Source: Polyangium sp. y55x31
GTDB lineage: Bacteria; Myxococcota_A; Polyangia; Polyangiales; Polyangiaceae
Length of the DNA stretch: 42,926 bases
Assembly: GCF_029946505.1 (NCBI RefSeq)
Contig: NZ_JARZHG010000009.1
Coordinates: 1 to 42,926, forward strand
Direction of reading: 5' to 3'
The number at the start of each line of letters is the position of its first letter. Within the stretch, counting starts at the first letter, position 1. Shown piece after piece: positions 6,784 to 34,224 of this stretch. Position numbers and translations under genes: made by a program. The notes under the pieces were generated by a model. The model saw only the letters and a list, made by a program, of their open reading frames with translations. It did no database searches and was not told where the DNA came from.

Positions 6784-6814
6784 CGTCCAATCCTCCGCGT
6801 CCCCGTCGACGGTT

Positions 6815-6850
6815 GCCGCCCGCGCGCTCGAGTCTTGAGCGCGGGACGGC
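6815..6850 (-). promoter_or_regulatory. GC-rich imperfect hairpin (CGCGCGCTC-gagtctt-GAGCGCG core) in the tssC-hcp intergenic spacer. Possible intra-operon attenuator or mRNA-processing / stability element that would set the Hcp:sheath ratio.
   Basis: Seen in the sequence between the tssC stop (6889) and the hcp start (6783). Confidence 0.3.
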
Positions 6851-6888
6851 AACTTCCTGATCTACCCTACACCGATTCGCCAGGCCCG

Positions 6889-8391: not shown

Positions 8392-8411
8392 GTTCGTATC
8401 CTCCGCGCGGC

Positions 8412-8915
8412 CTAGCTCTGTTCGTCCTTCGAAACTTCCGCCTTGATCTTTTCGAGAGCCTCGGTGCTCTCCATGACCTCACGCAGCGCCGCCGAGAGCT
8501 CGTCGTTGCCCTCGAGCTTGGCGAGGAGGTCGTTCAGGCGCTCGCGCGCGCGGAGCAGCTTGCGGAGCTCCGGGATGCGCTCGACGAGGCGCTCGGGCCG
8601 GAAATCGTCGAGGTGCGTGAACGTCAGAGGGATCGCGATCTTCCCCGTGCCCTTGAGGACGTCGTCGACCTTCACCGTGATCTCCGGCTTCGTCGAGGCG
8701 AGGACGTCGTTGAAATTGTCGCGGTCGATCTCGACGAACTTGCGATCCTTCAGCTTGGGCAGCGGATTCGCGGGGTTCTGCCCCAGGTCGCTGAGCACGC
8801 CGACCACGAACGGGATCTCTTTCTTCTCGATTGCGTTGCCCGTCTCGACGTCATACGTGATCTGCACGCGCGGCGGACGGTTCCGGTCCAGCCAGTGCTG
8901 CTTGCTCTCTGCCAT
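8412..8915 (-). CDS. tssB: Type VI secretion contractile sheath small subunit TssB (VipA/ImpB), 167 aa.
   Basis: Track ORF: MAESKQHWLDRNRPPRVQITYDVETGNAIEKKEIPFVVGVLSDL. VipA family; immediately upstream of tssC. Confidence 0.9.
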   Translation of the reverse strand: MAESKQHWLDRNRPPRVQITYDVETGNAIEKKEIPFVVGVLSDLGQNPANPLPKLKDRKFVEIDRDNFNDVLASTKPEITVKVDDVLKGTGKIAIPLTFTHLDDFRPERLVERIPELRKLLRARERLNDLLAKLEGNDELSAALREVMESTEALEKIKAEVSKDEQS

Positions 8916-9073
8916 CGATGGCTCCCTTCCTCGGCTCTCGCGGCGGCGCCGCGGCTTTGCGAACTCTCCGAAAACCGGCCCGCGCTCGGCGTGTAAGGCT
9001 GGCGCATTACCCTTTTACCGTGCCCAGGCTCGTCAACACAACACCCTCGTAGGGGCGCGCGCCTGTCCCCCGT

Positions 9074-10156: not shown

Positions 10157-10170
10157 CGAGGCTCTGTCTC

Positions 10171-13100: not shown

Positions 13101-14232
13101 ACACTTTGTGCTCGAAGAGATCCTTCGCGAAGAGGACCTTGCCCGGCGCGGCGGCAGCCGCAGGCAAGGGCTTTTGCGGGGGCGCGAGCGCGGCGGGGGT
13201 GGCGCCGGGGGCCGTGAGCTGCGGAGGGCCGGCGGGCGGATCGGCGAGGCCCGTGAAGTAGATGCCGCGGAGGGTGAGCGTCTCCTGGCCGGCGCCTTCG
13301 AGGAAGACGGGATCGACGTACGTGCGCAGGCCGTCGCCGAGCGACTCGATCTCGCTCGGGAAGAGGAAGAAGTCGTCGGGCGAACGAACGACGGGGGCGC
13401 CGGCGAAGCGCCGCGCCTGGTAACGGAGGAGTGCATCCCGCACGGTGCCGAGCGCCTCGGAGGCCCAGTCCTCCGCGCCGTCGGTGAAGGGCGGATGCGG
13501 GCTCGACCAGCCGAGGATGTCGTCGCGTCCGGTCTGCGTGACCTCGACGCCGAGGCTGCGGAAGCCGGCGAGGCGATCGGTCTGCGTGACGATCACGTAG
13601 ACCGGGACGTTCATGCCGAGGGTCTGCTGCGCGAGGGAGATCGCGGCGCGCAGGACCGTCGCCTTGCGCTTGCGCTCGGCGGGCGTGGAGCGCGCCGTCT
13701 GCATGACCTCGGCGCAAGGGACCGTGAGCAGGATGCCGTCGACGGGGCGATCGGGATAGAGGCGCTTGAGCTCGTGGAGGAGCGCGCGATACGGCGGATC
13801 GGGCGCGGCCGTGCCGCCCTCGCCGAAGAGGAGGCGGCCGGCGACGTCGACGATGAGCGCCTTGCCGAGCATCCAGAGGTTGACGGCCGCGGTGTCGCCG
13901 GGCGCGGGATCGCCGCCCTCGATGAGCTGGACGCTGAGGCCGGAGCCGCCGAGGAGGGTGGTTTTTCCGGACGAGGGTTCGCCGAGGACGAGGTAACGCG
14001 GCATCTCCTCGCGCGCGGTCTTGTCCTGGACCTTCTTGACGAGCGCGGCTTTCGCTTTGTCGAAAGAGGCGCGGATCTCGGCGATGGGATCGGGCGTGCC
14101 GTCGCGCTTGGCGGCCTCCAGGGCCTTCTGCGCTTTTTTCTTTTGCGCGAGGTAAAACGCGTAGATCCCCACGCCGATCACTGCGAGCGCGATCAGGCCG
14201 CCGACGATCTTGAGGAGGGTGCCGACGGTCAC
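10171..14232 (-). CDS. tssM: Type VI secretion membrane-complex protein TssM (IcmF/ImpL family), 1353 aa.
   Basis: Track ORF. N-terminal TM segment followed by the Walker A motif YLVLGEPSSGKTTLL, and an IcmF-like size. GTG start overlapping the tssL stop (GTGA). Confidence 0.88.
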   Translation of the reverse strand: MTVGTLLKIVGGLIALAVIGVGIYAFYLAQKKKAQKALEAAKRDGTPDPIAEIRASFDKAKAALVKKVQDKTAREEMPRYLVLGEPSSGKTTLLGGSGLSVQLIEGGDPAPGDTAAVNLWMLGKALIVDVAGRLLFGEGGTAAPDPPYRALLHELKRLYPDRPVDGILLTVPCAEVMQTARSTPAERKRKATVLRAAISLAQQTLGMNVPVYVIVTQTDRLAGFRSLGVEVTQTGRDDILGWSSPHPPFTDGAEDWASEALGTVRDALLRYQARRFAGAPVVRSPDDFFLFPSEIESLGDGLRTYVDPVFLEGAGQETLTLRGIYFTGLADPPAGPPQLTAPGATPAALAPPQKPLPAAAAAPGKVLFAKDLFEHKVFAERNLGKPAAAALRRRQRINLALQIVACCLGGAFLAALWIDASRLERRTTAVMPFLRDVQSSVLQAKSEAPGTEASFDTKKLRAKALIEKLETIEESGRLRSPLNPASWWGRLDRRVDTAFVVALESVLVDTFRAGLNEEATHLLRPLPPQPPPDTFFPLSVEKSQEYINLETWLRELTAFEAHVARHDSLLGELPKDATPDARMQSVADLSDYLLGYKTSPTIAVEYYRNALARGARRQPIDLAPRRDPAREKATNLFKGLQDRVLEAYSDAVVRADVEQLVQSLKDLETKGTEYTAQDLWTLRDAIARVEAHLGAPTLAWVSSESLPPNEGIAGLLKTVKNSRLLGPDVEASLRGGVDARLLDLKNYVASAGSPLSGPILERKGGVLLMRLSPFILGLKPPIDALRQQTFMTAEEEKTLTPDLDRSRVDWDAEVLKEAARLPKDYEAFLQGGVLKTVDARVRNTISDLTVRQIKASTLGAVARAARPATPLPGNNNRQFETVRADAANLGQAMAPVREMIGAFVRLRMDDARDRLRELMRGQGSEVLGRAAEVLRAENLYGLKKGGFTWWDGKSTPAFEAFSVPDAGRLSEYAAAQRTRAATLHKELAEPLLAAMESPEVAGDAGGDPNVTLWQNVAWPLKDYENKKAGNGVSNLETFMLSDLPLITAKNCIAELDKRAGVDGSGGFFAGKQKYMVEELRERCRVLAGEEMRDRYAALRRTFNRELSGKFPFVKIEPGIRVEDARPETVRRFLQDAADFRSDFGYVLGKDTKASAGEVGRFLEKIEAVRAFMMPMWAQVESAEDGIYDVKVEFRVNPGLEVGGNRIAEWAMRLADERLYRDGPKAEASWRVNDPVRLDLRWAKSSLDVPLPTQGPNVFVEDRTVTFEERGPWALLRMIAFHQTSARDGSQKTEGGSHVLGFVVQSSPDPTGGFIERVGTDANTVRVFIRVAITGVEKDRLLRYPEFPASAPNL

Positions 14233-14984
14233 GTGGCGTCCTCGATGCGGTCGAGCACGTCGTCGAGCTCGGCCGTGCGATAGAGCCAGAGGATCTCACC
14301 GATGACGATCCAGCCGAGGATGACGACGAGGAACGGCAGGATGCCTCGGGAGAGGGAGGGCAAACGCTTCTGGGGGGCGCCTTCCGCGGTGTGCTCGTGC
14401 GCCTGGGGGCAAAGGTCTTCGCCGCGGACGATCTCGGGATCGGTGCGGGCGAGGAAGTCGACGATCCGCGCGCGGTAGGTCTCGGGCTCGCCGGTGCCGA
14501 GGGGCGCATACCTCCCGCGGAAGCCGAGGGCGAGGGCCGTGAGATAAACCGTGAGGAGCTGCGACGACGCGGGCGTGCGGCCGTTGAGGGCGTCGTCGAT
14601 GCGGTTGAAGAAACGGTCTCCGGAGTCGCGCGTCTGAAAGACGATCGATTCGAGCGGTTTGTCGGCCCAGAACTCCTTGCCGGACCAGTCGAGGTGGAGG
14701 AAGACCTCGTCGGCCATGGCGATCATGACGTAGCGGGTCTCCTCGAAGAGGCGGCGCTCGTGCTCGGGGAGCGAGCCCTGGATGTTGTTCGCTTGTTGCT
14801 CGAAGGCGTCGAGGAGGCGCTGCTGGACGGCGTCGTACGGGAGGGCGCCGCCCGAGGCGACGACGAGGCGCTTCTGCGTGACGACGTCCGCGTGGAAGTT
14901 GCAAAACGCGTCGACGAGGACGCGCTGGTCCCGCAGGGCGGCCTGCTTGGGGCCGAGGGCGGATCGTCCCGGAGAAGCAGCCAT
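14229..14984 (-). CDS. tssL: Type VI secretion membrane protein TssL (DotU/ImpK family), 251 aa.
   Basis: Track ORF. DotU-like core (…LLTVYLTALALGFRGRYAPLG…) with a C-terminal TM helix (ILPFLVVILGWIVIG). Confidence 0.8.
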   Translation of the reverse strand: MAASPGRSALGPKQAALRDQRVLVDAFCNFHADVVTQKRLVVASGGALPYDAVQQRLLDAFEQQANNIQGSLPEHERRLFEETRYVMIAMADEVFLHLDWSGKEFWADKPLESIVFQTRDSGDRFFNRIDDALNGRTPASSQLLTVYLTALALGFRGRYAPLGTGEPETYRARIVDFLARTDPEIVRGEDLCPQAHEHTAEGAPQKRLPSLSRGILPFLVVILGWIVIGEILWLYRTAELDDVLDRIEDAT

Positions 14985-14991
14985 CGCGCCC

Positions 14992-16320
14992 CTACCCGCT
15001 CTTCACGTAGAGGACCGCCTCGGAGGGCCCGCTGGCTCCCGTCGGATCGGCCGTGTTGCACAAGGTGAGCGGCTCGCCCGGGTCGAGGTAGACGCTCTGC
15101 TCTTCGAGCTCGAAGAGCAAGGTGCCGGGCGTGGCGACGAGATCGCCGTGGCGCTCGACGCGCTTGCGGCCCGCGCCGAGGATACGGCTCTCTTGCATGG
15201 TGCGCAGGCGGGCCGGGGCGCCGATGAGCGCGCCGTTCATCCAGTTGAGGAGCTGATCCTCGCGCACGCCGCGCGCCGCGCGGACGGCGACGACGAGGGC
15301 GCGCGTGCGGAACTCGCGCTGGAAGAGGACGTTGTACTTGCCGTCCTTGAGGTCGAACGGGTAGGCCGTGAAGGACTCGATGATGCCCTCGTCGACCATG
15401 CGGAAGATGTGATCGCGGGCGTTCTCGAAGGTCGCGCGCAGATCGTCGTGCCGGTACTTGGGCAGGAGCGGCGGCACGGGCGTGCGCGCGAGCGAAGAGA
15501 TCTGTCCGACGAGCCCGGTGAGCGTGACGAAGAGCGAGAAGGGGTGCGGGCGATCGGAGTAGAGGACGGCCTCGAACGGAGGGAGCGCGGAGACGAGGCA
15601 CTGGATCTGGCGACGGACCTCGCCGATGAGCTCGCGATCGGTGGTGCGTGAGAGGAAGTTCGCCTTCTCGGCGAGGCGCATGGCCTTCTCGCGGAGGCGT
15701 CCGGCAAGACGTTGACACATCTCGTCGAGGGGTGATCCCTGTGCGACGCCGAGGGTCGGCGGGATGTAGTCGGTCGCGACGAACGCCTCGCCTTCGAGGC
15801 GGACGCGCGCGATGGGCAAGCAGACGAGGCGCGGCGGCGGCTCGGCCGCGACGAGGAGGCGGACGCTCGGCGCGATGCGCGGGATCTCGAGCGGGTCTTC
15901 GCCCGTGTGCTCGTCCACGACGGGCGCGCCTTCGGCGGAGCAGTTGCGCGCGAGGTCCGCGGCGGAGGCGGAGGTGCCCATCTGCGCGCGCGGGACGGCG
16001 AGGTAGACGGTGGCGGGTGCGTCGCGGACGAGCGCGGCCTGCGGGCGGAGATCGACGGAGAGGTCGAGTTTGCCGCCGGTGTGATGGACGAGGGTGCCAT
16101 CGGGCATGATGGCCTCGACCCTCTGGACACGCAAAAGGCCGCTGCCGAGCGTGCCTTCGGCGAGCTTGAGGTCGATGATGCCGTGGTGATACGGCGAGGC
16201 CTGGCCGAGGTGATAGGCGAGGAGGCGCTCGGATCTGCGATCGGCCTCCTGGAAGTGCTGCGGCGACAGGAGCATCCCGTCGTGCCATTGAATCGCGAGC
16301 GGAATGTCGTCGGCGCGCAT
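14992..16320 (-). CDS. tssK: Type VI secretion baseplate protein TssK (ImpJ/VasE), about 442 aa.
   Basis: Track ORF 14992..16338. The preferred start is M7 (MRADDIPLAIQWHDGMLLSPQHFQ) because a GGAGGA box lies 5 nt upstream of it. The TssK N-terminal WxxGMxLxPQHFQ motif is present. Confidence 0.85.
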   Translation of the reverse strand: MRADDIPLAIQWHDGMLLSPQHFQEADRRSERLLAYHLGQASPYHHGIIDLKLAEGTLGSGLLRVQRVEAIMPDGTLVHHTGGKLDLSVDLRPQAALVRDAPATVYLAVPRAQMGTSASAADLARNCSAEGAPVVDEHTGEDPLEIPRIAPSVRLLVAAEPPPRLVCLPIARVRLEGEAFVATDYIPPTLGVAQGSPLDEMCQRLAGRLREKAMRLAEKANFLSRTTDRELIGEVRRQIQCLVSALPPFEAVLYSDRPHPFSLFVTLTGLVGQISSLARTPVPPLLPKYRHDDLRATFENARDHIFRMVDEGIIESFTAYPFDLKDGKYNVLFQREFRTRALVVAVRAARGVREDQLLNWMNGALIGAPARLRTMQESRILGAGRKRVERHGDLVATPGTLLFELEEQSVYLDPGEPLTLCNTADPTGASGPSEAVLYVKSG

Positions 16321-16321
16321 G

Positions 16322-16786
16322 TCATTCCTCCGGAGCATCGAGGGGGCTCACGACGAGGTCGTCGTCGCCGAGGTCGACCCGCATCCGGCGTTGCGGGCCA
16401 ATCCGAAAGCGATGATCGCCGGGCGAGCGGTAATTGGCAAAGATGACGGCGCCGACGGCCTTGCCAGAGACCTCGACGACCATGGGCGGCGGCGCCTGAC
16501 CGGGGACGAATTCCCAATCCCACTCGGTGAACGCGGTGCCGCTCGGGAAATCCCGGCGCATCTGCTCGCGCTGCTCGTACCACTGCTTGGCGGTGAGCTT
16601 GACGATCTGGTCGAAGAGCTTCGCGTCCTGCACCGCGACGAGGGTCAGGGGGACGGGCGAATTCCGGTTCGCCTTCGCCGTGATTGCGACCTCGACGAGA
16701 AACCTCGTCGGCGGGGGCCCCGAGGAGCAGCCGAGGCCCGACGGCAAGACCAGAGCGAGCGCTACGATCCATCGCGCCCAACCCAT
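16322..16786 (-). CDS. tssJ: Type VI secretion outer-membrane lipoprotein TssJ (SciN/VasD-like), about 154 aa.
   Basis: Track ORF 16322..16819. Preferred start is MGWARWIVALALVLPSGLGC (purine-rich box upstream), which gives a lipoprotein-type signal peptide with Cys. Small size and position upstream of tssK fit TssJ. There is no strong sequence signature beyond the architecture. Confidence 0.6.
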   Translation of the reverse strand: MGWARWIVALALVLPSGLGCSSGPPPTRFLVEVAITAKANRNSPVPLTLVAVQDAKLFDQIVKLTAKQWYEQREQMRRDFPSGTAFTEWDWEFVPGQAPPPMVVEVSGKAVGAVIFANYRSPGDHRFRIGPQRRMRVDLGDDDLVVSPLDAPEE

Positions 16787-16920
16787 CGTCCCGCCCCGAC
16801 GGTGCTTGGAGAAGCCCATGCGTACGTAAGGGTAGAGCGATCGTGCGGGACGGGTCTACAAACTCGCGAAGGCAGGCTACAGAGGAGAGTGGAATCGATG
16901 GGTTAGGGTGGACCGCTGTG

Positions 16921-16988: not shown

Positions 16989-17435
16989 CTACGCGTCGAG
17001 GCTTGACGTGGGGGCGGCTCGTGGCGGGAGGAGCCCGACGGCCAGCGCGTACCCGAAGGCGAAGCCGGTCGCGAGCCGGGTCGCGTGTCCTCCCGGGTAG
17101 GGGCCCGCGGCCCGCGCGATCACGTCGACGACCATGCAAAGGCCCGCCGAAAGGAGCCACCCGCGCCGCGCGCGTGGTCGGGCGTCCGCCGGCCACCCGA
17201 CGAGCGCGGCTGCGGCGAGGCCGGCGAAGATCCCGGCGCATCGGCTACAAAGGGGCATCACCACGCCCGCGAGCCGGAGCGTGCGCTCCGGGAGGCGATG
17301 ACATATCGCCGAGAAGACCGAATCCAAGGGCCCGGCGTCCTCGCCGAGCAGCCTCCATGCGCGCGCGAGCGTCAGGAGCCACGGGGAGAGCCCCACCACG
17401 ACGAATACGACGCGTGCCGCGGTCCTCGTGTGCAT
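16989..17435 (-). CDS. DUF2085-like small integral membrane protein (148 aa) directly upstream of tssJ on the same strand.
   Basis: C-terminal 148 aa of track ORF 16989..18293: MHTRTAARVVFVVVGLSPWLL…CHRLPERT…MPLCSRCAGIFAGLAAAALVG… This is the CHR...PLC[AS]RC pattern typical of DUF2085 membrane proteins. The remainder of the 434-aa track ORF is an Arg-rich artefact. Confidence 0.5.
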   Translation of the reverse strand: MHTRTAARVVFVVVGLSPWLLTLARAWRLLGEDAGPLDSVFSAICHRLPERTLRLAGVVMPLCSRCAGIFAGLAAAALVGWPADARPRARRGWLLSAGLCMVVDVIARAAGPYPGGHATRLATGFAFGYALAVGLLPPRAAPTSSLDA

Positions 17436-17663
17436 CTCGGCAAAACCTGCCGCGTTCCCTGCCCGCGCGCGCGTCGTGCCTCCCTCGCGATGCGCTACGC
17501 GAGCGTATGGCTTTCGCGGCGGGCGGCGCCGCACCCATTCAGCGATTCCCCGAGGGCAGGCGCGCGGGGGCGAAGGATGGCCGCGCCCCGCTTGCTGCGC
17601 GGTGCGCACGGCTCCACATGCATTCGTGACGGGGTACGGACAGCACACGAGGAGGGGGGCGTC

Positions 17664-18743
17664 ATGAGGAAGATGCAATCGACGACGCCGGCGCGGCTTC
17701 ACGAAGAACGGGAGCATCGGCTGACGGTGGCGTTGAGCGTGGCCTTCGCGGCCCTCGCGTTCCTGGCCTGCAAACAAGGGGAGCGCGCGAGCGCGAAAGG
17801 CCAATGCCCGCCCGGGGAGACGTGCTCGGATCGAACACCGGAGGGCCTGAATTTCATCGGCGCGCATACGGTCAACGACGCGGACACTGCGGACCTCCTG
17901 CCCACGGCGATCGGGGGCACGCAGACGGTGACCCTTTATTACGCGGGCTCGCCCAACGTGCCCTACGTGGCCGGATTCGAGGCGAGGCCCGTCGATTCCA
18001 CGATCGCCACGCTCGAATCGCAGAGCCTCTCCGAGCTGGTCCTTCAAGGCGCCACCGAGGGAAAGACGCTGCTCCGGGTCGTCGAGCCGGGGACGAACGC
18101 GCTGCTCGACCGGGTCGAGATCAAGACCGCCGCGGTCGCGCGGATCTCCGTCATCCCGCGGGAGCTGCGGTACGAGACGGTGACCCCCACGCAGTGGGCG
18201 GTGCTCGCCGGGAACCCGGCGGATCTCGGCGTCTTGCTCTTCGATGCGAACAACGTCCAGGTGATCGACGAGACGCTCGACGTGCGCGCCCACGGAGCCG
18301 AGATCTCACGGCGCACGTGGGATCGTCGCGAGGTCACGGCGCCTTCGGAGGGCTCCCTGACGCTCATGGTGCGGGCGGGGGATCATCGGGAGCCGGTGGA
18401 GGTGCAGGTCGTCTCCTCGGTGAAAGACATCACGCGCAAGCCGCAGGACAGCACCGAGCAGCCGGGCCCGATCGAGATCCAGGTCGGCGCGGCGGCGGAG
18501 ACGTTCTGCTTCCTGGCCAAATCGGACGACAAGACGGTGGTCGGGGCGCCGTGGGGATTCGAGCCGTCGGAGAACCTCTCGATCGCGCGGCCGTCGCCGC
18601 CGTCGGATACCCATCCGTGGGATGCGCCGTTCTGGTCGCCGCCGAGCTGCGTGGCGCTCGCGGGGGCGAAGGTCGGGACGGCGACGCTGAAGGTGAAGGC
18701 AGGCGACTCCGACAAGGTGTTCGAGGTCTCGATCCGGGAATGA
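17664..18743 (+). CDS. Secreted lipoprotein / Ig-like (BIG-type) domain protein, 359 aa.
   Basis: Internal start MRKMQSTTPARL (M194 of track ORF 17085..18743) with GGAGG 8 nt upstream. Signal peptide …LSVAFAALAFLACKQG. Beta-rich Thr/Val-rich body with repeated …KTLLRVVEPG… / …ATLKVKAGDSDKVFEV… strands. Confidence 0.55.
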   Translation: MRKMQSTTPARLHEEREHRLTVALSVAFAALAFLACKQGERASAKGQCPPGETCSDRTPEGLNFIGAHTVNDADTADLLPTAIGGTQTVTLYYAGSPNVPYVAGFEARPVDSTIATLESQSLSELVLQGATEGKTLLRVVEPGTNALLDRVEIKTAAVARISVIPRELRYETVTPTQWAVLAGNPADLGVLLFDANNVQVIDETLDVRAHGAEISRRTWDRREVTAPSEGSLTLMVRAGDHREPVEVQVVSSVKDITRKPQDSTEQPGPIEIQVGAAAETFCFLAKSDDKTVVGAPWGFEPSENLSIARPSPPSDTHPWDAPFWSPPSCVALAGAKVGTATLKVKAGDSDKVFEVSIRE

Positions 18744-18749
18744 CGGCCG

Positions 18750-19259
18750 TCATCCCTCGGAGCGATCGCGGGCGGCGGAGGCCTCGGTCTTCGCCGCCTG
18801 GTTCTTGCGGCGGGTCTTCGCGCCCTTCACGGCGATCTGGGCATTGTAACGGAGGGTCTTCTCGAAGGGCGCGAGGAGGGCCTTGTCGCGGGTGCGCTGG
18901 GCCGTGGACTTCGTGATATCGACGATCCGGGCGATGGTGTTCTCGCGCTGATGGGTCTTCAAGCGGCGCGACTCGCGGGTGACCTCGAGGAGCTTTTCGA
19001 GGAGCATCTCCTTCTGGAGGAGCGCGTCGATGCTCTTCGTTTCGGCGACGAACCGCTCGTAGAGCTTGGGGGAGATGCCGGCGGACTCGCCGAGCAGAGG
19101 GAAACTCGCGGCGAGCTCGTGGACGACGTCCTCGATTCCCGGCTGCACGCCGCGGAAGCCTTTCGCGCCGCCCGGGGGGAGGTCGAAGAGGTCGTCCTTC
19201 ACGTCGGCGAGGGAGACGTCGAGGGGGCCTGCATACGGGAGCATCGGACCGGTCGTCAT
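18750..19259 (-). CDS. Hypothetical protein, 169 aa (MTTGPMLPYAGPLDVSLADVKDDLFDLPPGG…), with a basic and possibly helix-turn-helix-like C-terminus.
   Basis: M69 of track ORF 18750..19463, with GGAGG 6 nt upstream. The N-terminal 68 aa of the track ORF lie in the hairpin-repeat array and are not coding. The stop is convergent with the upstream lipoprotein gene inside an ATGACGGCCGTCAT palindrome. Confidence 0.45.
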   Translation of the reverse strand: MTTGPMLPYAGPLDVSLADVKDDLFDLPPGGAKGFRGVQPGIEDVVHELAASFPLLGESAGISPKLYERFVAETKSIDALLQKEMLLEKLLEVTRESRRLKTHQRENTIARIVDITKSTAQRTRDKALLAPFEKTLRYNAQIAVKGAKTRRKNQAAKTEASAARDRSEG

Positions 19260-19320
19260 GGAGCACCTCCGGGTAGGGGTGCGCGATCGACGGTCGAGAG
19301 GGCGAGGTCGTGAAGGGGGA

Positions 19321-19630
19321 GCACGAAGTCGTCTCCTGGGAAGGAGGAGGGCACGGCGGGTGGGGGTGATGTGGTGGGGTGGTGAGGATGAGATCGTCCT
19401 CTGGGGAGGATGAGATCGTCCTCTGGGGAGGATGAGGAGAGCCTCCTGCGATGAGGATGGCATCGTCGTGCAGGACCCATGAGGCTTTGGAGGAAGATGC
19501 CTTCATCCTCGGGGGAGGATGACGAGGGGAGGCGGGGAGGATGAGGAAGTCCTCGTCCAGGAGGACCTCCTCTTCCTATGTAGAGGAGGGCAGCTTCGGG
19601 GAGGATGAAGGCGTGTTCGGCGCAGGCTCG
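19321..19630. repeat. Intergenic array of about 9 degenerate tandem ~23-nt units (consensus GGGGAGGATGAGATCGTCCTCTG). Each unit is a GAGGA-N7-9-TCCTC mini-hairpin.
   Basis: Seen in the sequence: two perfect tandem copies (gaggatgagatcgtcctctgg x2) followed by diverged copies (ggaggatgaggagagcctcct, gaggaagatgccttcatcctc, ggaggatgaggaagtcctc, ggaggacctcctc, ggaggatgaaggcg...). The units are contiguous with no unique spacers, so this is not CRISPR-like. Confidence 0.7.
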
Positions 19631-19632
19631 AA

Positions 19633-22600
19633 TCAGCCTCGCGAAGGGGGGACTTCGCGGCGCGAGGTCACGCGTCGACGAGCGAGGAGCCCGGCGGCGA
19701 GCACCAAGGCGGCGATCGGAGCGCCCGACGCGGGCCCGCCCGAGGCCTGGCAGCCGGCGTTGACGGCCGAGCCCTTGGCCTGGTCGGCGCCGCCGCCCGG
19801 AACCAGGTCCTCGCCGCCGCCCGCACCCGAGGAGTTGGATCCGCCGCTTCCGCCGCTTCCGCCGCTTCCGCCCGTGCCGGCGCCGCTGCTCTCGCAAACG
19901 CCGCCCATGCAGGTGCCACCCGCGCAGGATTCGCCGTCCGGCTTCGTCGGGTCGTCGCAGGTGCCCGTCGCCGGATCACAGGTGCCGGCCTCGTGGCATT
20001 CGTCCTCGGCCGTGCAGACGACTGGATCGGCGCCGACGCACGCGCCCACGTCGCAGGTGTCGCTTTGCGTGCAGGCATTGCCGTCGTCGCAGACAGCGCC
20101 CGTGAGCGGCGTGCAGGTGCCGTCGGCGGAGGCGCCGAGCGCGACAGCGCAAGCCTGGCAATCGGGTGCGGAGTTGCCGCAGCTCGAGTTGCAGCAGACG
20201 CCGTCCGCGCAGAAGCCGCTCGCGCAATCGGTCGACGCGGAGCAGGCGGCGCCGAGGGATTGCGAGGTCGTGAGGAGGCGGGCGCGGATGCGGTTGCTGC
20301 CGTAGGGCGGCGCGGTCTCTCCCTTCATGTACGCGAGGAGCAGGTGGCCGGCGCCGTCGCTCGCGAGCGCGGGCTTGTCGTGGTGCGCGGCGCCGAGGCC
20401 GGCGAAGGGCTGGCCGCCGGGGGTGAGGACGTCGCCGGCTTCGGTCACCCAGCTCCCGTAGATGGCTCCATTGACGCCATGCCGCCCGTCACGCCAGACG
20501 ACGAGGCAATCGGTCCCGTCGAAGGCAATGGCCGGATTGCCGCTCTGATAATTGGAAGTCAGCTCGACGTCGAGGGTATCGATGACGACGCCGGCGCCCG
20601 TGACGCGGGCCAGGAACACACGGCTGTTGGTGTAGGCGACGGTGAAGTTCAGCCCATCGAACGCCACCGCGGGGGAGCCGGTCGCATTGGGGCGGATGAT
20701 GATCCCCGGCGGCGCGTCGAGGAGCACACCCGCGGTCGTGATCCTCGTGCCCCGCAGGGTTCCGTACGTCGAGACCACGAAGTATCGGTTGCCGTCGAAC
20801 GCAATGCCGGGGCCCGATCCGCTCAAGGCAGCACTGCTGATCAGAAAGCCAGTCGGCTGAAGGAGGACGCCGGCCTGCGTCATCAGGGCGCCGTAGACAC
20901 CCGATGTCGAACGGCCGTCTTGCCAGGCGACGAGGTAATTCGTGCCGTCGAATGCGATCGCCGGGGCTTGCTCGTGCCGGTTCGCCACCGCGACGAGGGG
21001 GATCCCGGCAGGATCGGCGACGACGCCGGCCGCGCTCACGCGCGCCGCATAGATGTCGTAATAGGTCCCCGAGCGCTTGTCTTGCCAGACGATCATGTAC
21101 TGGGTGCCGCCCCAGACGACCTTCGGGGAGGATTGCTCGCCGGTCGCGGCCGAGATCACGATGCCCGAGGGATCGAGCACGTCGCCGGTAGGCGAGATCC
21201 GCGTGGCGTAGAGGTCCACGGTCGCGTTGTCTCGCATGTCCTGCCAGACGACGAGGTAGTTCGTGCCGTCGTAGGCGATGGAAGGCGCGTCCTGCTGGTT
21301 GGCCGCCGAGAGGAGCCTCAAGCCTTGCGAATCGTGGACGGTGCTCCCCGTGAAGCGCGCGCCGTACGCGATCGGAGTACTACCGCCCGCGCGCAGGTCC
21401 TCCCATGTAGCAAAACAAGCACCACCGCCGCACGCGACCTCCGGCCCGGATTGCTGGTTCGCAGCGACCGCGAGGGGCGTGCCGGTCCCGTCGAGCGCGA
21501 CGCCGTCGACCGAGACCCGTCCCTGCCAGATGTCCTGATCACCCGTGCGATTGTCGGTCCAGGTGACGACGTACTGGGTGCCGTCGAACGCGACAGAGGG
21601 CGTCGACTGCGTCCCCGCGCTCTTGCAGACCTCCACGCCGATCGGATCCAGCACGGTCCCCGAGGGCGAGACCCGCGCGCCGAAGATGTCCGGGTTTCCC
21701 CACTTGCCGTCGTTCCATACGACGAAGTAGTTCGTCCCGTCGAAGGCGACCGAAGGAGCCCCTTGGCTCTGGGCCGAGAGCGAGATGGCGAAGCCATTGG
21801 GTTCGAGTACGGCCCCGGTCCCGGTCACGCGGGCGCCGTAGATATCCGCGATGCTGTTGTTACGCGTGTCCGTCCAGACGACCAGGTAATCGGTACCATT
21901 AGACGCAACCGAGACATCGCTCTGGATGGTGCTAGTCGGGGTCGAAATGCCGAACTGGCTCCCGATGGCCGTACCCGTGGCGTCGACGAGAGCGCCGTAC
22001 ACGTCCCCAACGACTTCCCAGGCGACGAGGTGATTCGTACCGGCGGCGGCCACGTCGAGCGAGTTGATGTTCTGATTGGGGTAGCTCCCGTACTTCTTCG
22101 GCGTCGGGTCCAGCACGACGCCGGCCGGCGAGACCCGCGCACCAACCACGAGGCCGTTGCTGCCGACGAAGGCCCCCCATGCGACGAGGTAGTGGGCGTT
22201 GGCGAAGGTCACCGCGAGCTTGTTGGAGCTGGCGCTAGGGCCGGGCCCGGCTCCGATCTCGAAGCCCCCCGGGTCCAGGATCACGCCCGCGGGTGTGACC
22301 CGCGTGCCCACGACTGTGAGTGAGCTGAGCTTGTTGAGCTGCCGCGCGTCGATCCAGGCGACGAGCCAATTCGTCCCGTCGAAGGCGACCTGCGGGGACG
22401 ACTGCGCCGTGGTCACCTGGAAATAAATGGGCGTATCACTGCCGAACTCGGGGCCAATCGTCGGGTCGAGCACCGCAGGGTAAGCGGAGCCCTCCACGAC
22501 GGCCTCGGGTACGGTCAAGACGAGCTCGCCCTCGGCCTTCGTATACCGGACCGGGACCGCCGTTCGTTCGCCCCGCCCGTCGATCCACGTCGCCAGGCCA

Positions 22601-23256
22601 TACCGAAGCCCGAGGCCCGTCGCCGGATCGACGAAATGGTGCCCCGCCGCGGTCTCGCCCGCGTACGCCTGGCCCGTGACCCGGACGCGGATTTCGAGGT
22701 CGCCGCGTCCTTTCGGCTGCGTATCGAACGAGAAGCTCTGCTCGACGCCCTCGTCGTCGTTCCGTAGGTGCTCGGTGACGTCGCCCCGCGTGATGGCGAG
22801 GTGGCCGTCCTGCTCGACGCGGCCTTCGACGCCGCGAAGATCGCGGGCCGCGCCGCGGGTCAAAGAGACGGTTTCGAAGGTGGCCTCCGCCCCCTCGCCC
22901 GCGGCGGACGCGGGTCGAACGGAGAATGCCGAGGTCGAGGCGCGCACCCCGTACGTCGAATGCCCGCCCGCCCAGCGTTCGCCGTCCTTCCGGAAGGCGA
23001 AATGGACCTGCCGCATGACGCCGTCGAGATCAAACGGAGCGGACGCCTGCGTGCGTTTCCCCGGCGAGCGCAGAGCTGCCGGCTCCGGAGGCGTGGTCTC
23101 GCGCGGCGAGAGCTCCCCATCACGGGCGGAGCACGACGCGAGGAGCGCGACGACCCAGACGACGAGCGCGGCCCCGATGCCGCGCCGAATACGCTCACGA
23201 GCCGCGACGCGGGACGCGGCTCCCTTTCTCGGACACGAAGATACGAGTCCAGACAT
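19633..23256 (-). CDS. Large repeat lipoprotein (1207 aa). It has a lipobox signal (…VVALLASC), about 17 tandem ~48-aa repeats (…Q.sP.VAFDGTNYLVVWxDxRxGxxDIYGARVSxxGxVLDPxGIxIS…), then a Myxococcus cysteine-rich repeat module and a C-terminal MYXO-CTERM sorting domain.
   Basis: Track ORF; visible internal periodicity. The Cys-rich segment VCDDGNACTQSDTCDVGACVGADPVVCTAEDECHEAGTCDPATGTCDD matches the Myxococcus cysteine-rich repeat. The tail …NAGCQASGGPASGAPIAALVLAAGLLARRR matches the MYXO-CTERM (GC + hydrophobic + RRR) pattern. Confidence 0.7.
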   Translation of the reverse strand: MSGLVSSCPRKGAASRVAARERIRRGIGAALVVWVVALLASCSARDGELSPRETTPPEPAALRSPGKRTQASAPFDLDGVMRQVHFAFRKDGERWAGGHSTYGVRASTSAFSVRPASAAGEGAEATFETVSLTRGAARDLRGVEGRVEQDGHLAITRGDVTEHLRNDDEGVEQSFSFDTQPKGRGDLEIRVRVTGQAYAGETAAGHHFVDPATGLGLRYGLATWIDGRGERTAVPVRYTKAEGELVLTVPEAVVEGSAYPAVLDPTIGPEFGSDTPIYFQVTTAQSSPQVAFDGTNWLVAWIDARQLNKLSSLTVVGTRVTPAGVILDPGGFEIGAGPGPSASSNKLAVTFANAHYLVAWGAFVGSNGLVVGARVSPAGVVLDPTPKKYGSYPNQNINSLDVAAAGTNHLVAWEVVGDVYGALVDATGTAIGSQFGISTPTSTIQSDVSVASNGTDYLVVWTDTRNNSIADIYGARVTGTGAVLEPNGFAISLSAQSQGAPSVAFDGTNYFVVWNDGKWGNPDIFGARVSPSGTVLDPIGVEVCKSAGTQSTPSVAFDGTQYVVTWTDNRTGDQDIWQGRVSVDGVALDGTGTPLAVAANQQSGPEVACGGGACFATWEDLRAGGSTPIAYGARFTGSTVHDSQGLRLLSAANQQDAPSIAYDGTNYLVVWQDMRDNATVDLYATRISPTGDVLDPSGIVISAATGEQSSPKVVWGGTQYMIVWQDKRSGTYYDIYAARVSAAGVVADPAGIPLVAVANRHEQAPAIAFDGTNYLVAWQDGRSTSGVYGALMTQAGVLLQPTGFLISSAALSGSGPGIAFDGNRYFVVSTYGTLRGTRITTAGVLLDAPPGIIIRPNATGSPAVAFDGLNFTVAYTNSRVFLARVTGAGVVIDTLDVELTSNYQSGNPAIAFDGTDCLVVWRDGRHGVNGAIYGSWVTEAGDVLTPGGQPFAGLGAAHHDKPALASDGAGHLLLAYMKGETAPPYGSNRIRARLLTTSQSLGAACSASTDCASGFCADGVCCNSSCGNSAPDCQACAVALGASADGTCTPLTGAVCDDGNACTQSDTCDVGACVGADPVVCTAEDECHEAGTCDPATGTCDDPTKPDGESCAGGTCMGGVCESSGAGTGGSGGSGGSGGSNSSGAGGGEDLVPGGGADQAKGSAVNAGCQASGGPASGAPIAALVLAAGLLARRRVTSRREVPPSRG

Positions 23257-23374: not shown

Positions 23375-26300
23375 TCAAGGGTTGGGGCGAGGGGGAGCTC
23401 CACCCTGCCCCTGCCCCAGCGACACGAGCGCCCGCTCCACGTCGGTGCGGTACGCATTGTCCATCGCCGCGACCTCCTTGAAGCGGAGATAACTCTTCAC
23501 GGCCTTGTCCTTTTGCCCCGTGGCGCGCATCGCCTCGCCGTGGAGGAAATACGCGTCGGCGTGCCAGCTCTCCGCGGGGCCGTTCTTCTGCAAGAGCAGC
23601 TCCACGGCCTTGTCGAGCTCCGGCGTGGCCGCGAGCTTGTTGCCGTTCGATTCGAAGATCTTGCCGAGCCGATAATGCCACTCGGCGACCGAGCCATTGC
23701 CCGCGATCGCCTTTTGCCACGCCGTCTGCGCCTCCGGCCAGCGGCCGAGCTCCTGATAACAAAGCGCCATCGTGGCGTGCGCCTCGTGCCGGGAGGGGCG
23801 CTTTTGCAAGGCAATTTCGAGGTCCGCGAGGGCGTCGAGCGTGCGGCCCTGCTTGTGGAGCAAGACGCCGCGTTGCCAGTAGGCGTCCGCGAGCTCGCGG
23901 TCGAGCTCGAGGGCGCGCTTCAAGGCCGCCTCGGCCTTCGGGAACTGACCGAGGACGTTCGCCGCCCAGCCGACATAGAGGAAATACTCGGCGCGATTGC
24001 CGTCGATCTCCGTGGCCCGTTCGAGGAATCGAATGGCCTCGCCCGCTGCCGACGAGCCGCCCTTCAAGAGGAGGGCGCGGCCGAGGAAATGGTTCGCGTC
24101 CGCGGAGCCGGCGCGCTCTTTCAAGACCTCGCGCAGGATCGGCTCGGCCTGCGCCGCGTGGCCCGCCATGACCTGCGCGGAGCCGACCCGCATTTTGAGG
24201 TCGATGTCCGTCGGCGCCTTTTCGAGCGCCGCCGCATACATCTCGAGCGCGCGCTCGCTCTGGCCCGTCTCCTCGTAAAGGAGGCCGCGCTCCAGCGAGA
24301 GGCCGGGGAATTCCTTGTCGACGGTCGCAATCTGGTCGAAGACCTTCTGCGATTCCTCGAACGCGCCCATGCGGCGGAGCGTGACGCCGAGGCGGAAGCG
24401 CGTGCCGAGGTCGTCCTCTTTGGCGAGCGCGGCCTCGAATTCGGTGCGCGCCTCGGGATAACGGCCGGCCTGCGAGAAGACCTCGCCCTTGGCGCGGTGG
24501 AGCGCCGGGAGGTCGGGGAACTTGGCGCTGGCCTCGGCGAGCTTGGCCTGCGCCTCGTCATTGCGGCCGGCGGCCGAGAGGAGCGAGGCGAGCGCGACGT
24601 AGGCCTCGACGGCCTCGGTCTGCGTGCCGCCGAGCTTGATGGCCTGGAGGTAAAGGGCCTCGGCTTCCTTCTTGTTGCCGAGCGCATCCTCGACGCGGCC
24701 GAGCCAGTAGGCGGACGCGGCGGCGTCGGGTTTGTCGGCGCGGAGTTTTTCGGCGAGGGCCTTGGCGTCCTTGAGGCGTTCGAGCGCGAGGAGGGTCTTC
24801 GTCGCGCCGATGCGGGCCGGGAAGCTGGTCTCGTCGACACGCATGGCCTCCTCGAAACGGAGGAGGGACTGGGAGAAGCGGCTCGATCGATAAAAGAGCT
24901 CGCCGTCGCCGATGAGCGCGGCGCCGCTGCGCGGGTCGATCTTGAGCGCAGCGGCGAAGGCCTGTTCAGCCGCGGTGATGCGGGAGCGGGCGAGGTGGAT
25001 GCGGCCGGTTTCGAGGTAGGCCTCGACGAGCTCGCGTTCGCTGGCAGAGGCGCGGATGTCGCCCTCGGCGGTGACCTTGCCGAGGAGGTCGAGGGCGTCG
25101 GTTTCCTTGGCGGGGTCGCGGCCGAGGATCGAGGCGAGCAAGGTGCGCGCGCCGGCGTGCTTGGGAGAAGCTTCGAGCGCGGCGCGGGCGCTCTTCTCGG
25201 CAGAAGCGGCGTCGCCCTTGGCAAGCTCGGCGCGGGCGAGGCCGTAGAGGGAGCGGGCGCCCTTGCGGATGGAGACGGCGCGTTTCCACGCGACGAGCGC
25301 GTCGGCGGTGGCGCCGGAGGCAAGCTCGATCTCGCCGATCAGGACAGCGGCGTCGATGTCGTTCGCGTCGGCGTCGAGCGCGTCCTTGGCCATGCGGCGC
25401 GCCGGATCGAGGCGGCCCGCGAGCGCGTGTTGCGCGGCGACCGCGAGGGTGCGCTCGCGGCTCGGGCTCTCGGTCTGTCCGAGGAGCTGCTTGCCGAGGG
25501 TCTCGTCGTCGCCGCGGCGGCCATGGCGGACGCTTCGGGAGAAGGCGACATACGCGGCATACGCGGCCGTCGCGCGGTGGCGCGGGCGCGAGAGTTGCGC
25601 AGCCTTGGCAGCTGCGAGCGCGCGCGCGGCGGCCGCGGCGGTGTCCTCGTCGAGCGTGGCCTGCGTGTTCTTTTCGAGCCCGCTGAGCGCCTCGGCATGC
25701 GCGGAGGCGTTCACGAGATCACTCACGGCGTGCGCGCCGAACGGGCCGATGTCGGGAAGGAGCGCGAGCGCGCCGCCGCCGATCGCGATAAGGACGGCCG
25801 CGCCGATGCCGTACACACGGCCGCGGCCACGGGGCCGCTTTTCACCGGCGGGCCGCGCGAGGCTCTTCGGGGATCTGTCGCGTTTGGCGAGGGCCGTGTC
25901 GAGCCCCTCGGACTCGCCCGGCGCGAGGTCGACCTCGTCGCCGATGCCCGCGTCGTCCTCCGGAGGAGGCGCGGGCGCGCGGGGCGCGGCGGCCGCGGGG
26001 ACGTCGGCGCGCTGGGTCGCCGCGCCCGTGCTGATCGGCGCGCCCGTCGAGAGGTCCATGTCCGGTTCGCCGAGGGAAAACTCTTCGCCCGGCTTGGAGA
26101 CGGGGGCCGCAGCGCGTGTGCTCGCCGGCGGCGCCGGCGTGGCCGGCTTGGGCGCGGCGGCGGCCTTGTTCGGCGGGGGATCGGCGAACGCGGCGTCGAA
26201 GGCCGCGTCGTCGAGCTCGAAGCCGGCCGTCGCGGACGCGGCGGCGCGCGGCCGCGACGCGGGAGATGCCGCAGGCGCAGGCGGCGGCTCACTCGCGAGG

Positions 26301-27736
26301 GGAAACTCGAGCTCGCCGAAGTCGCCGCCCGAATCGAAGGCCGCGATCGAGGCGGCCGGGACGGTCGCGCCGGGATCGAGCTTGCGGTTCGCGTCGCCCC
26401 GGGACGCGGCCCCCGCAGGCGGCGGCAGCTCTTCGGGCGCGGGCAGGTCGAGCTCGCCGAAGGCGCCGAGATCGGGCGCCGGGAGATCGATCTCGCCGAA
26501 GTTGCCGAGGTCGGAGTCGGCGGAGACGGCGGGCAGGTCGAAGCTGCTGAGCGGTTTTCCGCGCAGCGCCGTCATCGCGCCGGAGGAGCGGTGCCGCGGG
26601 CCGGGCGCGGCCGGCGCGGGGAGATCGGCAGGCTCGTTCTTCGCGGGAGCGCGCGCGGGCGCGGGGAGATCGATCTCGCCAAACCCCTTCGCCGCAGGCG
26701 GCGCGGGGCGCGCAGCGGCGGGGCGCGCCGGCGCGGGGAGATCGATCTCGCCGAACCCCTTGGCCGCGGGCGCGGGGCGCGCGGGGGCGGGCAAATCGAG
26801 CTCGGGCGTGCTCTTCTTCGCGGGGCGCGCGGGGCTCGGCAGATCGATCTCCGGCGCGGGCGCGTTCTTCGCCGCGGGACGAGCGGGCGCGGCGAGGTTC
26901 TCTTCCGGCTTCGGCGGCGGCGGCTTCGGCGCGGCGGGGCGCGCGGGCGAGGGCAGATCGATCTCGCCGAACCCCTTCGCCGCGGGGCGCGCGGGCGCGG
27001 TCGGTTTGTCGTCCGGCTTCGGAGGACCAGGCTTCGCCGCGGCCGCGCGCGTGGGCGACGGCGACGGCGACGGTAGATCGACTTCGAGCGAGGCCGTCAC
27101 CGGGGTCGCCATCTGCCGGACCGTCGGCTTGTTCGAGGGTACGCCGGGGGGCAGCTCGATCGCCGCGAGCGCCGCGTCCTCCTCCTCTTCATCATCGAGG
27201 GGGAATTCGTTCACGACCGCGGCCATCTGCCGCACGGTCGGCTTCGCGGGCATGGGCAGGTCGACGAGCTCTTCCTCTTCGGCCGCGGGCAAGGCGGCCG
27301 GCATCTGCCGCACCGTCGCCTTCGCGGGCGAAGGAAGATCGATCTCGCCGAACCCCGGATCGTCATCACCGCCCCACAGATCGAGCTCCGTGGCTTCCGC
27401 GGGCTTCGGCGCGGGCGCAGCGGGCTTCGGGGCGGGCGCGGGCGCAGCAGGCTTGGGCTTCGCAGGGAGCACGGGCGGCTTCGGCGCGACCGGAGCGGCC
27501 GGCGCTTTGCCCAGCGCAGGGCGCGGCAGGAGCGGCTCGGTGCCACCTTTCGCGCGCGGCGCGACCGGCGAGGGGAGATCGATCTCCTCGGCCTCCGCCG
27601 GCTCCGCAGGTTTGCGGACCAAGAGGCTCGTGCCGCACTTCGAGCAGCGCATCTTGAGCCCCGTCGCCGGGATCCGTCGTTCCTCCACCTGGTACGGCGA
27701 CCTACAGGAGTCGCACTCGACCTTGACCATGCTCAT
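23375..27736 (-). CDS. MJ0042-type zinc-ribbon / Pro-Ala-rich repeat linker / single-TM / large TPR-repeat protein (~1453 aa). Its architecture resembles the myxobacterial GltJ(AgmX) class.
   Basis: Track ORF 23375..27781. Preferred start is MSMVKVECDSCRSPYQVEERRIPATGLKMRCSKCGTSL (CxxC…CxxC zinc ribbon at the extreme N-terminus). The ~600-aa linker carries 8 or more copies of GFGEIDLP[AS]PARPA and 3 copies of KPTVRQM. A TM helix follows (VYGIGAAVLIAIGGGALALLP), then ~800 aa of TPR-like repeats. Confidence 0.75.
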   Translation of the reverse strand: MSMVKVECDSCRSPYQVEERRIPATGLKMRCSKCGTSLLVRKPAEPAEAEEIDLPSPVAPRAKGGTEPLLPRPALGKAPAAPVAPKPPVLPAKPKPAAPAPAPKPAAPAPKPAEATELDLWGGDDDPGFGEIDLPSPAKATVRQMPAALPAAEEEELVDLPMPAKPTVRQMAAVVNEFPLDDEEEEDAALAAIELPPGVPSNKPTVRQMATPVTASLEVDLPSPSPSPTRAAAAKPGPPKPDDKPTAPARPAAKGFGEIDLPSPARPAAPKPPPPKPEENLAAPARPAAKNAPAPEIDLPSPARPAKKSTPELDLPAPARPAPAAKGFGEIDLPAPARPAAARPAPPAAKGFGEIDLPAPARAPAKNEPADLPAPAAPGPRHRSSGAMTALRGKPLSSFDLPAVSADSDLGNFGEIDLPAPDLGAFGELDLPAPEELPPPAGAASRGDANRKLDPGATVPAASIAAFDSGGDFGELEFPLASEPPPAPAASPASRPRAAASATAGFELDDAAFDAAFADPPPNKAAAAPKPATPAPPASTRAAAPVSKPGEEFSLGEPDMDLSTGAPISTGAATQRADVPAAAAPRAPAPPPEDDAGIGDEVDLAPGESEGLDTALAKRDRSPKSLARPAGEKRPRGRGRVYGIGAAVLIAIGGGALALLPDIGPFGAHAVSDLVNASAHAEALSGLEKNTQATLDEDTAAAAARALAAAKAAQLSRPRHRATAAYAAYVAFSRSVRHGRRGDDETLGKQLLGQTESPSRERTLAVAAQHALAGRLDPARRMAKDALDADANDIDAAVLIGEIELASGATADALVAWKRAVSIRKGARSLYGLARAELAKGDAASAEKSARAALEASPKHAGARTLLASILGRDPAKETDALDLLGKVTAEGDIRASASERELVEAYLETGRIHLARSRITAAEQAFAAALKIDPRSGAALIGDGELFYRSSRFSQSLLRFEEAMRVDETSFPARIGATKTLLALERLKDAKALAEKLRADKPDAAASAYWLGRVEDALGNKKEAEALYLQAIKLGGTQTEAVEAYVALASLLSAAGRNDEAQAKLAEASAKFPDLPALHRAKGEVFSQAGRYPEARTEFEAALAKEDDLGTRFRLGVTLRRMGAFEESQKVFDQIATVDKEFPGLSLERGLLYEETGQSERALEMYAAALEKAPTDIDLKMRVGSAQVMAGHAAQAEPILREVLKERAGSADANHFLGRALLLKGGSSAAGEAIRFLERATEIDGNRAEYFLYVGWAANVLGQFPKAEAALKRALELDRELADAYWQRGVLLHKQGRTLDALADLEIALQKRPSRHEAHATMALCYQELGRWPEAQTAWQKAIAGNGSVAEWHYRLGKIFESNGNKLAATPELDKAVELLLQKNGPAESWHADAYFLHGEAMRATGQKDKAVKSYLRFKEVAAMDNAYRTDVERALVSLGQGQGGAPPRPNP

Positions 27737-27920
27737 GCCTTCGAGGGGCCCTGGGGCGCGCGATCGTTCCGCGTTGCTCACTTCTACCAGGGTTTGAGGC
27801 TTCGCGGCTCTTTTGCGACACGAGGGGGGCGGCGAACGCGGGCCGAGCAGGCAGCCGAGCAGCGCGGATTCGTCCTCTCGCTTCCGCTGGGCCGGGGAAA
27901 TGTGCTAACGCGCTCGCCCC

Positions 27921-28867: not shown

Positions 28868-29330
28868 CCAGGGGTTGTCCACCCCTGGACCCGGACCAGC
28901 GCAAGCGCTGGACTCGGGGTTGATGAACTGCGCGGTGCGCAGTTCATCAAACAGCCGGTGGCAAGACCGGCGACGACCCTGCCAGCCACGACGGCAGCGC
29001 GGCTCGACAGGCCACACCCCGTCGCCGCGTGAGACGAACCCTCGCGGTCTTGCCACGGGCCCGTCGGAGAAACTGCGCATCGCGCAGTTTCTCCGCCTTC
29101 GGTCCAGGCCGTGCCTGGTCCGGGGTGCAGGGGGCGGACAGCCCCCTGCTGGGGTACGGGGCAAAGCCCCGCTCCGCGCCTCCCTGTGGAACCCCTGAGC
29201 GAGCGAGCAGGCGAAGCTGGGGCATGGGGGCGCGGGCGGGGCCCTTGCCCACGATCGGGGTGGCCGTGGCGAACGCGTGCCGCGGGGGAATGGCCGCGCG
29301 TCGCGGCATGGTGTGGGATCGTCGCGATCC
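28868..29330. repeat. Cluster of 8-10 perfect GC-rich palindromes/hairpins in the ~550-nt leader upstream of the giant TPR gene pair. It includes two covarying long palindromes: TTGATGAACTGCGC-ggt-GCGCAGTTCATCAA (28920..28950) and GAGAAACTGCGC-atc-GCGCAGTTTCTC (29067..29093).
   Basis: Seen in the sequence. Further hairpins: CCAGGGG-N7-CCCCTGG (28868..28888), CCAGCGC-aa-GCGCTGG (28896..28911), CCAGGC-cgt-GCCTGG (29104..29118), CAGGGGGC-ggaca-GCCCCCTG (29128..29148), GGGGC-aaa-GCCCC (29157..29170), GCCGCG-cgt-CGCGGC (29293..29307), GGATCG-tcg-CGATCC (29316..29330). Confidence 0.6.
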
Positions 29331-29389
29331 GTCGCGAGCACGCTTTACTCCCGACGCACCGTTTGGCTAGTCTCCCCACGCAGCATGCA

Positions 29390-34192: not shown

Positions 34193-34224
34193 GCCACGAC
34201 TCTGGAGCAAAGGATCAAGGTCCC

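Follow-up and report, generated by a model that had tools for sequence, protein, structure and literature searches.

A Polyangium gene encoding a predicted double-propeller, lectin-like surface protein with a MYXO-CTERM tag

A stretch of 42,926 nucleotides from Polyangium sp. y55x31 (assembly GCF_029946505.1, contig NZ_JARZHG010000009.1, positions 1 to 42,926; termed here the window) carries a gene that consists of a single open reading frame of 1207 amino acids on the minus strand, 19633..23256. The encoded protein adds a member to a widespread and very large family of lectin-like double-propeller surface proteins, a family that is recognisable but unnamed. The frame starts with ATG, with GAGGGG just 5′ of the start, and its G + C content at third codon positions (GC3, 0.85) is consistent with a real gene; the surrounding sequence is 65–75% GC.

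Blade repeats and their relationship to lectins

Most of the protein is made up of tandem repeats. A hidden Markov model (HMM) of the nine obvious repeats picks up 13 copies with strong scores between residues 283 and 953, at 13.5–89.5 bits, together with a degenerate 14th; when all 14 are used to build the HMM, each is detected, at 34–78 bits. With the 14-repeat model, no repeat was found outside this reading frame when the window was translated in all six frames. In 200 composition-preserving shuffles the maximum score was 6.2 bits, as against 13–89 bits for the real repeat domains. The tandem-repeat motif described in the initial annotation of this DNA is thus confirmed in the reading frame, although the count of about 17 and the period of about 48 amino acids given there have to be revised: the HMM search yields 14 copies (13 clear, one degenerate), 46–59 amino acids long with a mean of 51. 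Mean pairwise identity among the repeats is 33%, and they are visible at the protein level only. As Tandem Repeats Finder (TRF) reports no tandem repeat with the blade period in the DNA of this region, the repeats are considered ancient, and a recent duplication as their origin is ruled out.

The fold was predicted with AlphaFold2 for residues 44–1005, with an alignment of 62 homologs as input. The model consists of beta structure throughout, and each repeat contributes four strands (mean predicted local distance difference test, pLDDT, 89.4; predicted TM-score, pTM, 0.79). Its top Foldseek matches are tandem-propeller proteins, among them Elp2, LRP6 pairs and UTP proteins (TMq ≤0.43 over ∼890 columns), and alignments to 7-bladed rings are ∼300 residues long. 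Fourteen blades and alignments of this length lead to two consecutive 7-bladed beta-propellers, an arrangement strongly supported by the model; the boundary between the two is predicted at about residue 651/652. A propeller-blade reading of the repeat, offered in the initial annotation, is therefore borne out by structure prediction and fold matches, and the accompanying suggestion of an undescribed repeat fold is not: the repeat, as a classical propeller blade, does not represent a new fold. Elp2, the LRP5/6 YWTD pairs and UTP proteins have, like the Polyangium protein, two consecutive closed propellers per chain, but they belong to eukaryotic, protein-binding WD40/YWTD repeat families and display no sequence relationship to it.

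The repeat could not be assigned to a named family in the initial annotation, and indeed no Pfam or NCBIfam model covers it. Neither the whole protein nor a three-repeat fragment has a match in Pfam, and in NCBIfam the repeats score far below threshold with beta_prop_Msarc (TIGR04275; 20.1–21.6 bits, cutoff 85) and with TolB (18.1 bits, cutoff 405). Two further sets of candidates were rejected. The precomputed Pfam accessions of homologs (DUF3659, Peptidase_M23_N and CTXL_C) represent summed faint matches to the repeats, with zero stretches passing alone, and the PDB matches found by single-sequence phmmer are linker-composition matches to single-chain variable fragment (scFv) linkers only.

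A profile of the family alignment, on the other hand, reaches one solved protein by hmmsearch, the Chromobacterium violaceum lectin CV39L (E 1.7e-4). The two have in common a core, DG-x-x-YLV-x-W-Q-D, that is repeated in register, and when the family alignment is matched to the CV39L fragment, hhalign reports a probability of 96.2% (E 2.1e-9, 191 columns). The CV39L fragment likewise has no Pfam model. CV39L and BP39L constitute the PropLec7C lectin class, whose ligands are L-fucose and mannose (PMC11186620). The seven-bladed beta-propeller of roughly 50-amino-acid tandem repeats that characterises this class is also found in the Polyangium protein. That the blades are remote homologs of the fucose/mannose lectin blades of BP39L and CV39L is strongly supported. 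As judged from the profiles, the similarity to PropLec7C (IPR016285) is remote and shows superfamily-level homology, as distinct from membership of the family.

The nearest solved relatives, in fold as well as in profile, are BP39L and CV39L (PDB 6gxr, 6gxs), both 7-bladed lectins, and for this reason a role as adhesin or lectin, which the initial annotation had put forward, is the best-supported function. The PLL/PHL lectins of Photorhabdus (PropLec7A; PDB 5c9o) represent another lectin class of single propellers, with no sequence-profile link to the Polyangium protein; they are soluble tetramers.

Family, flanking domains and sorting signals

A word-indexed search yields >2,100 homologs, the best of which are ∼49% identical and come from Minicystis, Chondromyces and related metagenomes. 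When the propeller region was compared by phmmer with 1.84 billion cluster representatives, 19,808 matched with E ≤1e-3, of which 4,387 had E ≤1e-30; the resulting family size of ∼19,800 refers to clusters formed at 50% identity. Myxococcota have members of the family, and so, with tails of the type IX secretion system (T9SS), do other phyla. Among 120 homologs the repeat count is almost always 13 plus a degenerate 14th, spanning ∼680 amino acids regardless of the flanks, a constancy that is read as a requirement of a closed double propeller. The flanks form four architectures: N-terminal domain, propellers, Cys-rich module and MYXO-CTERM, as here; propellers with a T9SS Por_Secre_tail and no N-terminal domain; N-terminal domain, propellers, cadherin/PKD modules and MYXO-CTERM; and N-terminal domain and propellers only.

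Homologs are currently named 'MYXO-CTERM sorting domain-containing protein', 'TolB family protein', 'Ig-like domain-containing protein' or, wrongly, 'FliK', and literature on MstC and on myxobacterial propeller lectins yielded nothing on the double-propeller family. The practical value of the finding is one of annotation. At present, family members have labels that either refer to the tail alone or are misnomers. The link to CV39L and BP39L provides a concrete functional hypothesis, multivalent glycan binding at the surface, that would justify building a family model. The protein is a reasonable target for experiments, although the finding is not surprising, overturns nothing and opens no long-standing question.

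The domain layout is given in Table 1. One domain had been overlooked in the initial inventory. The N-terminal domain has a predicted galactose-mutarotase-like supersandwich fold, and its identity to known domains of this type (GH38, GH15, GH65, GH97, PL lyases and aldose 1-epimerase) is 5–14%. In the Polyangium protein the domain is joined to propellers instead of a catalytic barrel, (alpha/alpha)6 or TIM. It has no family-model match in Pfam or NCBIfam scans, which covered the whole protein and four separate parts, and a word-index search with this domain alone returned 9 fragments only and was uninformative.

The N-terminus displays a hydrophobic h-region, preceded by an Arg-rich n-region of 25 residues and followed by a lipobox, L38-L39-A40-S41-C42. 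Residues L39-A40-S41-C42 fit the lipoprotein pattern [LVI][ASTVI][GAS]C; this is a pattern match only. The closest ortholog among GTDB species genomes, that of Polyangium jinanense SDU13, is 74% identical over the full length and lies in a fully syntenic locus; its N-terminus and lipobox are conserved, the latter as LVAS-C. Cys is the majority state among homologs at the column equivalent to C42, and about half of the MYXO-tailed homologs also carry a lipobox-like N-terminus, as detected by a regular expression. The initial reading of an LLASC lipobox after a long n-region therefore agrees with what is present here and conserved in the ortholog.

Of the Cys columns of the Cys-rich module, 19 are invariant across 22 family members. 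Residues 998–1133 match no family at E ≤10 in NCBIfam, and likewise none in Pfam, so the module is neither TIGR04201, the TraA repeat, nor TIGR02232; a profile of the module has no match in the PDB. The Pfam Disintegrin model (PF00200) does not match the Polyangium module at E ≤10 and matches two of the 22 family modules scanned, only in more distant members (78.7 bits in the distant homolog P0019). What had been termed a Myxococcus Cys-rich module thus exists as a region with 20 Cys, but no curated family model matches it.

A perfect 9 bp tandem repeat at 19840–19872 (TCCGCCGCT ×3.7, found by TRF) encodes the GGS part of the linker that precedes the MYXO-CTERM tag. Linker length differs between the Polyangium orthologs, whose proteins have 1207 and 1235 amino acids, and on this ground the Gly/Ser linker may vary by slippage.

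MYXO-CTERM proteins are defined by a tripartite C-terminal tag, consisting of a signature with an invariant Cys, a transmembrane (TM) helix and an Arg-rich cluster, in combination with an N-terminal signal peptide (PMC11980579). The Polyangium protein has all of these: G-C1169, APIAALVLAAGLLA and RRR1193-1195, plus the N-terminal signal peptide. When the tail is scanned alone, TIGR03901 scores 23.3 (cutoff 20) and TIGR03382 scores 23.6 (cutoff 15.85), and the tag passes the curated cutoffs narrowly. In a full-length scan TIGR03382 is just above its cutoff at 16.5 and TIGR03901 falls below its own at 17.1, so that the earlier assignment of a MYXO-CTERM tail holds with both HMMs for the tail and with one for the whole protein. 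A CPBP protease, a candidate myxosortase, was not found among the window reading frames scanned. The protein has the hallmarks of a Myxococcota surface protein that is sorted and lipid-anchored, which supports the surface-attached lipoprotein proposed at the outset.

Table 1. Domains of the double-propeller protein and genes of the adjacent type VI secretion cluster in the window
Feature	Residues	Position	Strand	Remarks
Lipoprotein-type signal peptide	1-42	23131..23256	-	Arg/Lys-rich n-region, h-region, lipobox LLAS-C42; read from sequence
Pro-rich low-confidence linker	43-72	23041..23130	-	pLDDT <50, model residues 1-29
Conserved N-terminal beta-supersandwich domain, galactose-mutarotase-like fold	73-281	22414..23040	-	
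Beta-propeller 1, blades 1-7	282-651	21304..22413	-	7+7 split inferred
Beta-propeller 2, blades 8-14	652-1000	20257..21303	-	Blade 14 degenerate
Cys-rich module, 20 Cys	1001-1122	19891..20256	-	Presumed disulfide-bonded stalk
Gly/Ser-rich flexible linker	1123-1167	19756..19890	-	Sequence; TRF
MYXO-CTERM sorting tag (G-C1169, TM helix, RRR)	1168-1195	19672..19755	-	TIGR03901 and TIGR03382
Basic 12-residue extension past RRR (VTSRREVPPSRG) and stop codon		19633..19671	-	Sequence; similar extension in P. jinanense ortholog
TssF		3962-5815	-	
TssE/gp25		5767-6243	-	
Hcp		6292-6861	-	
TssC		6889-8478	-	
TssB		8412-9014	-	
TssA/ImpA_N		9074-10372	-	
TssM/IcmF		10171-14295	-	
TssL/DotU		14229-15002	-	
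TssK		14992-16347	-	
Small open reading frame at end of cluster		16322-16855	-	

Proposed role and alternatives

The favoured explanation, to which we give about even chances, is that of a cell-surface adhesin or lectin built on the plan of TraA, which combines a lectin-like head with a Cys-rich stalk and a MYXO-CTERM tag, and with glycan binding as the predicted activity. TraA (MXAN_6895) and its paralog MXAN_4924 are the prototype MYXO-CTERM surface receptors and have the same order of signal peptide, lectin-like head, Cys-rich region and tag. For the prototype TraA it is established that MYXO-CTERM proteins use Sec for export, with lipidation predicted at the invariant Cys, that MrtX, a myxosortase, cleaves the tag, and that localisation at the surface depends on type II secretion (the T2SS) (PMC11980579); the Cys repeats of TraA have been proposed to form a stalk (PMC3325183). 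The likeness is one of plan. The head of TraA is a PA14 domain and that of the Polyangium protein consists of propellers; the TraA Cys repeats are TIGR04201, a model that the Polyangium module does not match; the TraA signal peptide is of type I, whereas that of the Polyangium protein has a lipobox; and there is no sequence homology between the two outside the MYXO-CTERM tag.

By analogy, processing of the TraA type may apply, with an extra N-terminal acyl anchor at C42. The protein would be exported by Sec and acylated at Cys42, Cys1169 would be lipidated at the C-terminal end, and an MrtX/MrtC-type myxosortase would cut the tag. At the surface, the disulfide-rich module would then form a stalk together with the linker, presenting a multivalent head of two propellers and the supersandwich that would bind glycans. 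Candidate ligands are exopolysaccharide, sugars on the surface of prey or neighbour cells, and plant or fungal polymers. For myxobacterial biology, this adds one more candidate adhesin or recognition protein on the TraA plan.

The protein could be a surface-anchored carbohydrate-active enzyme (CAZyme), a polysaccharide lyase or glycosidase, with the active site in one propeller and the supersandwich as the usual CAZyme accessory domain, but this is doubtful. No CAZyme family model matches in Pfam or NCBIfam, and no conserved central catalytic constellation was identified. The blade sequences are unusually uniform, which is typical of binding propellers; enzyme matches score below lectin matches, and the sequence profile reaches the lectin only.

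Propellers that dock proteins instead of glycans, as in a scaffold or receptor of the TolB, integrin-alpha or LRP type, are an unlikely alternative. It draws on the weak sub-threshold matches to TolB and to the Methanosarcina propeller repeat, on the label 'TolB family protein' that NCBI gives to some homologs, on the presence of integrin-alpha and LRP6 propellers among the fold matches, and on the disintegrin-like Cys modules of some family members. The TolB and Msarc scores, however, are 18–22 bits against cutoffs of 405 and 85, the fold similarity to integrin-alpha and LRP6 is generic for propellers, and the sole link at the level of sequence profiles is to a lectin.

Comparison with P. jinanense bears on another possibility, a polymorphic receptor for kin or cell-cell recognition with TraA-like homotypic binding, in which fast-evolving blades set the specificity. 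Flanking genes are mostly 87–97% identical between the two loci, the exception being 18750–19463 at 70%. The ratio of nonsynonymous to synonymous divergence (dN/dS, Nei-Gojobori) is 0.47 for the double-propeller gene, with a synonymous divergence (dS) of 0.33; flanking genes have 0.12–0.25 and a dS of ∼0.2, again except 18750–19463 with 0.37 and 0.51. Identity is unevenly distributed along the protein: 91% in the N-terminal domain and 87% in the Cys-rich module, as against 65% in propeller 1 and 75% in propeller 2. Lowest are blade 11 (20695–20826) and blades 3 and 2 (21937–22233), all on the minus strand, at 41–48%; the other blades are 67–87% identical. Because these three also display raised dS (up to 0.88, compared with ∼0.2 in flanking genes), a mosaic or recombination history is suggested, and not just relaxed constraint.

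A recognition receptor is in keeping with this divergence of the propellers relative to their flanks, with the low identity (<50%) and raised dS of blades 2, 3 and 11, and with the overall TraA-like plan of lectin-like head, Cys-rich stalk and MYXO-CTERM. It is nevertheless improbable. The comparison rests on two genomes only, dN/dS is <1 nearly everywhere, and within blades the change is concentrated in loops over strands, the pattern expected of any propeller, which does not discriminate between the hypotheses. No TraB-like partner gene adjoins the gene, and the family is also found outside the social myxobacteria, with T9SS tails. A long shot that combines several of these elements is that the double propeller represents an expanded tandem-propeller branch of PropLec7C which, in Polyangium, might have become a mosaic-bladed, polymorphic TraA-like receptor, lipid-anchored in the outer membrane at both ends.

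A functional tie to the neighbouring type VI secretion system (T6SS), for example in target-cell recognition or as an accessory factor, is very improbable: a complete core cluster does lie 3 kb downstream on the same strand, its adjacency is retained in P. jinanense, and VgrG and DUF2169 occur 6 kb from the Minicystis rosea homolog, but synteny is not informative between two Polyangium genomes as close as these, sorting signals of the Sec and MYXO-CTERM kind indicate T2SS as opposed to T6SS, an opposite-strand gene and a variable spot separate the gene from the cluster, and, as the Chondromyces homolog has no T6SS neighbour, the adjacency is treated as incidental.

Neighbouring genes

The complete T6SS core cluster downstream of the double-propeller gene occupies 3962–16855 on the minus strand (Table 1). 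In Minicystis rosea (CP016211, 20143–24254), genes for VgrG (Phage_GPD/Phage_base_V) and for a protein with DUF2169/pentapeptide matches lie ∼6 kb downstream of the 49%-identical homolog. This neighbourhood is likewise T6SS-related and independent of the first; the Chondromyces homolog has none of this kind. Adjoining the cluster on its other side, a frame of 941 amino acids (1–2823, minus strand) runs off the edge of the window and has sub-threshold apolipoprotein-like helical-repeat matches (56.9 bits, cutoff 90).

The variable spot between the double-propeller gene and the T6SS cluster consists of a 578-amino-acid reading frame at 17007–18743 on the plus strand, which has no match in Pfam or NCBIfam and lacks a counterpart in the P. 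jinanense locus, syntenic in other respects. An unrelated frame of 526 amino acids (13799–15379 of that locus) stands there right after the ortholog. A small reading frame at 18750–19463, 170 bp downstream of the double-propeller gene and on the same strand, has no family match. Only its C-terminal ∼170 amino acids are conserved (70%) in P. jinanense, and for this reason the true start is probably the internal Met of MTTGPML. The intergenic segment 19464–19632 is an odd CT-rich, low-complexity stretch of TCCTC.

Directly upstream, at 23375–27781 on the minus strand, is a gene for a protein of 1468 amino acids that is 88% identical in P. jinanense. It has an N-terminal Zn_ribbon_4, a long Pro/Ala-rich region with a reiterated GFGEIDLPxPARPA motif, and a large C-terminal TPR array. 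Further on, two very long open frames with high GC3, 29033–34192 and 33004–39228, both on the plus strand, overlap by ∼1.2 kb in different frames. The former encodes 1719 amino acids with weak TPR/ARM-like matches and is 96% identical in P. jinanense.

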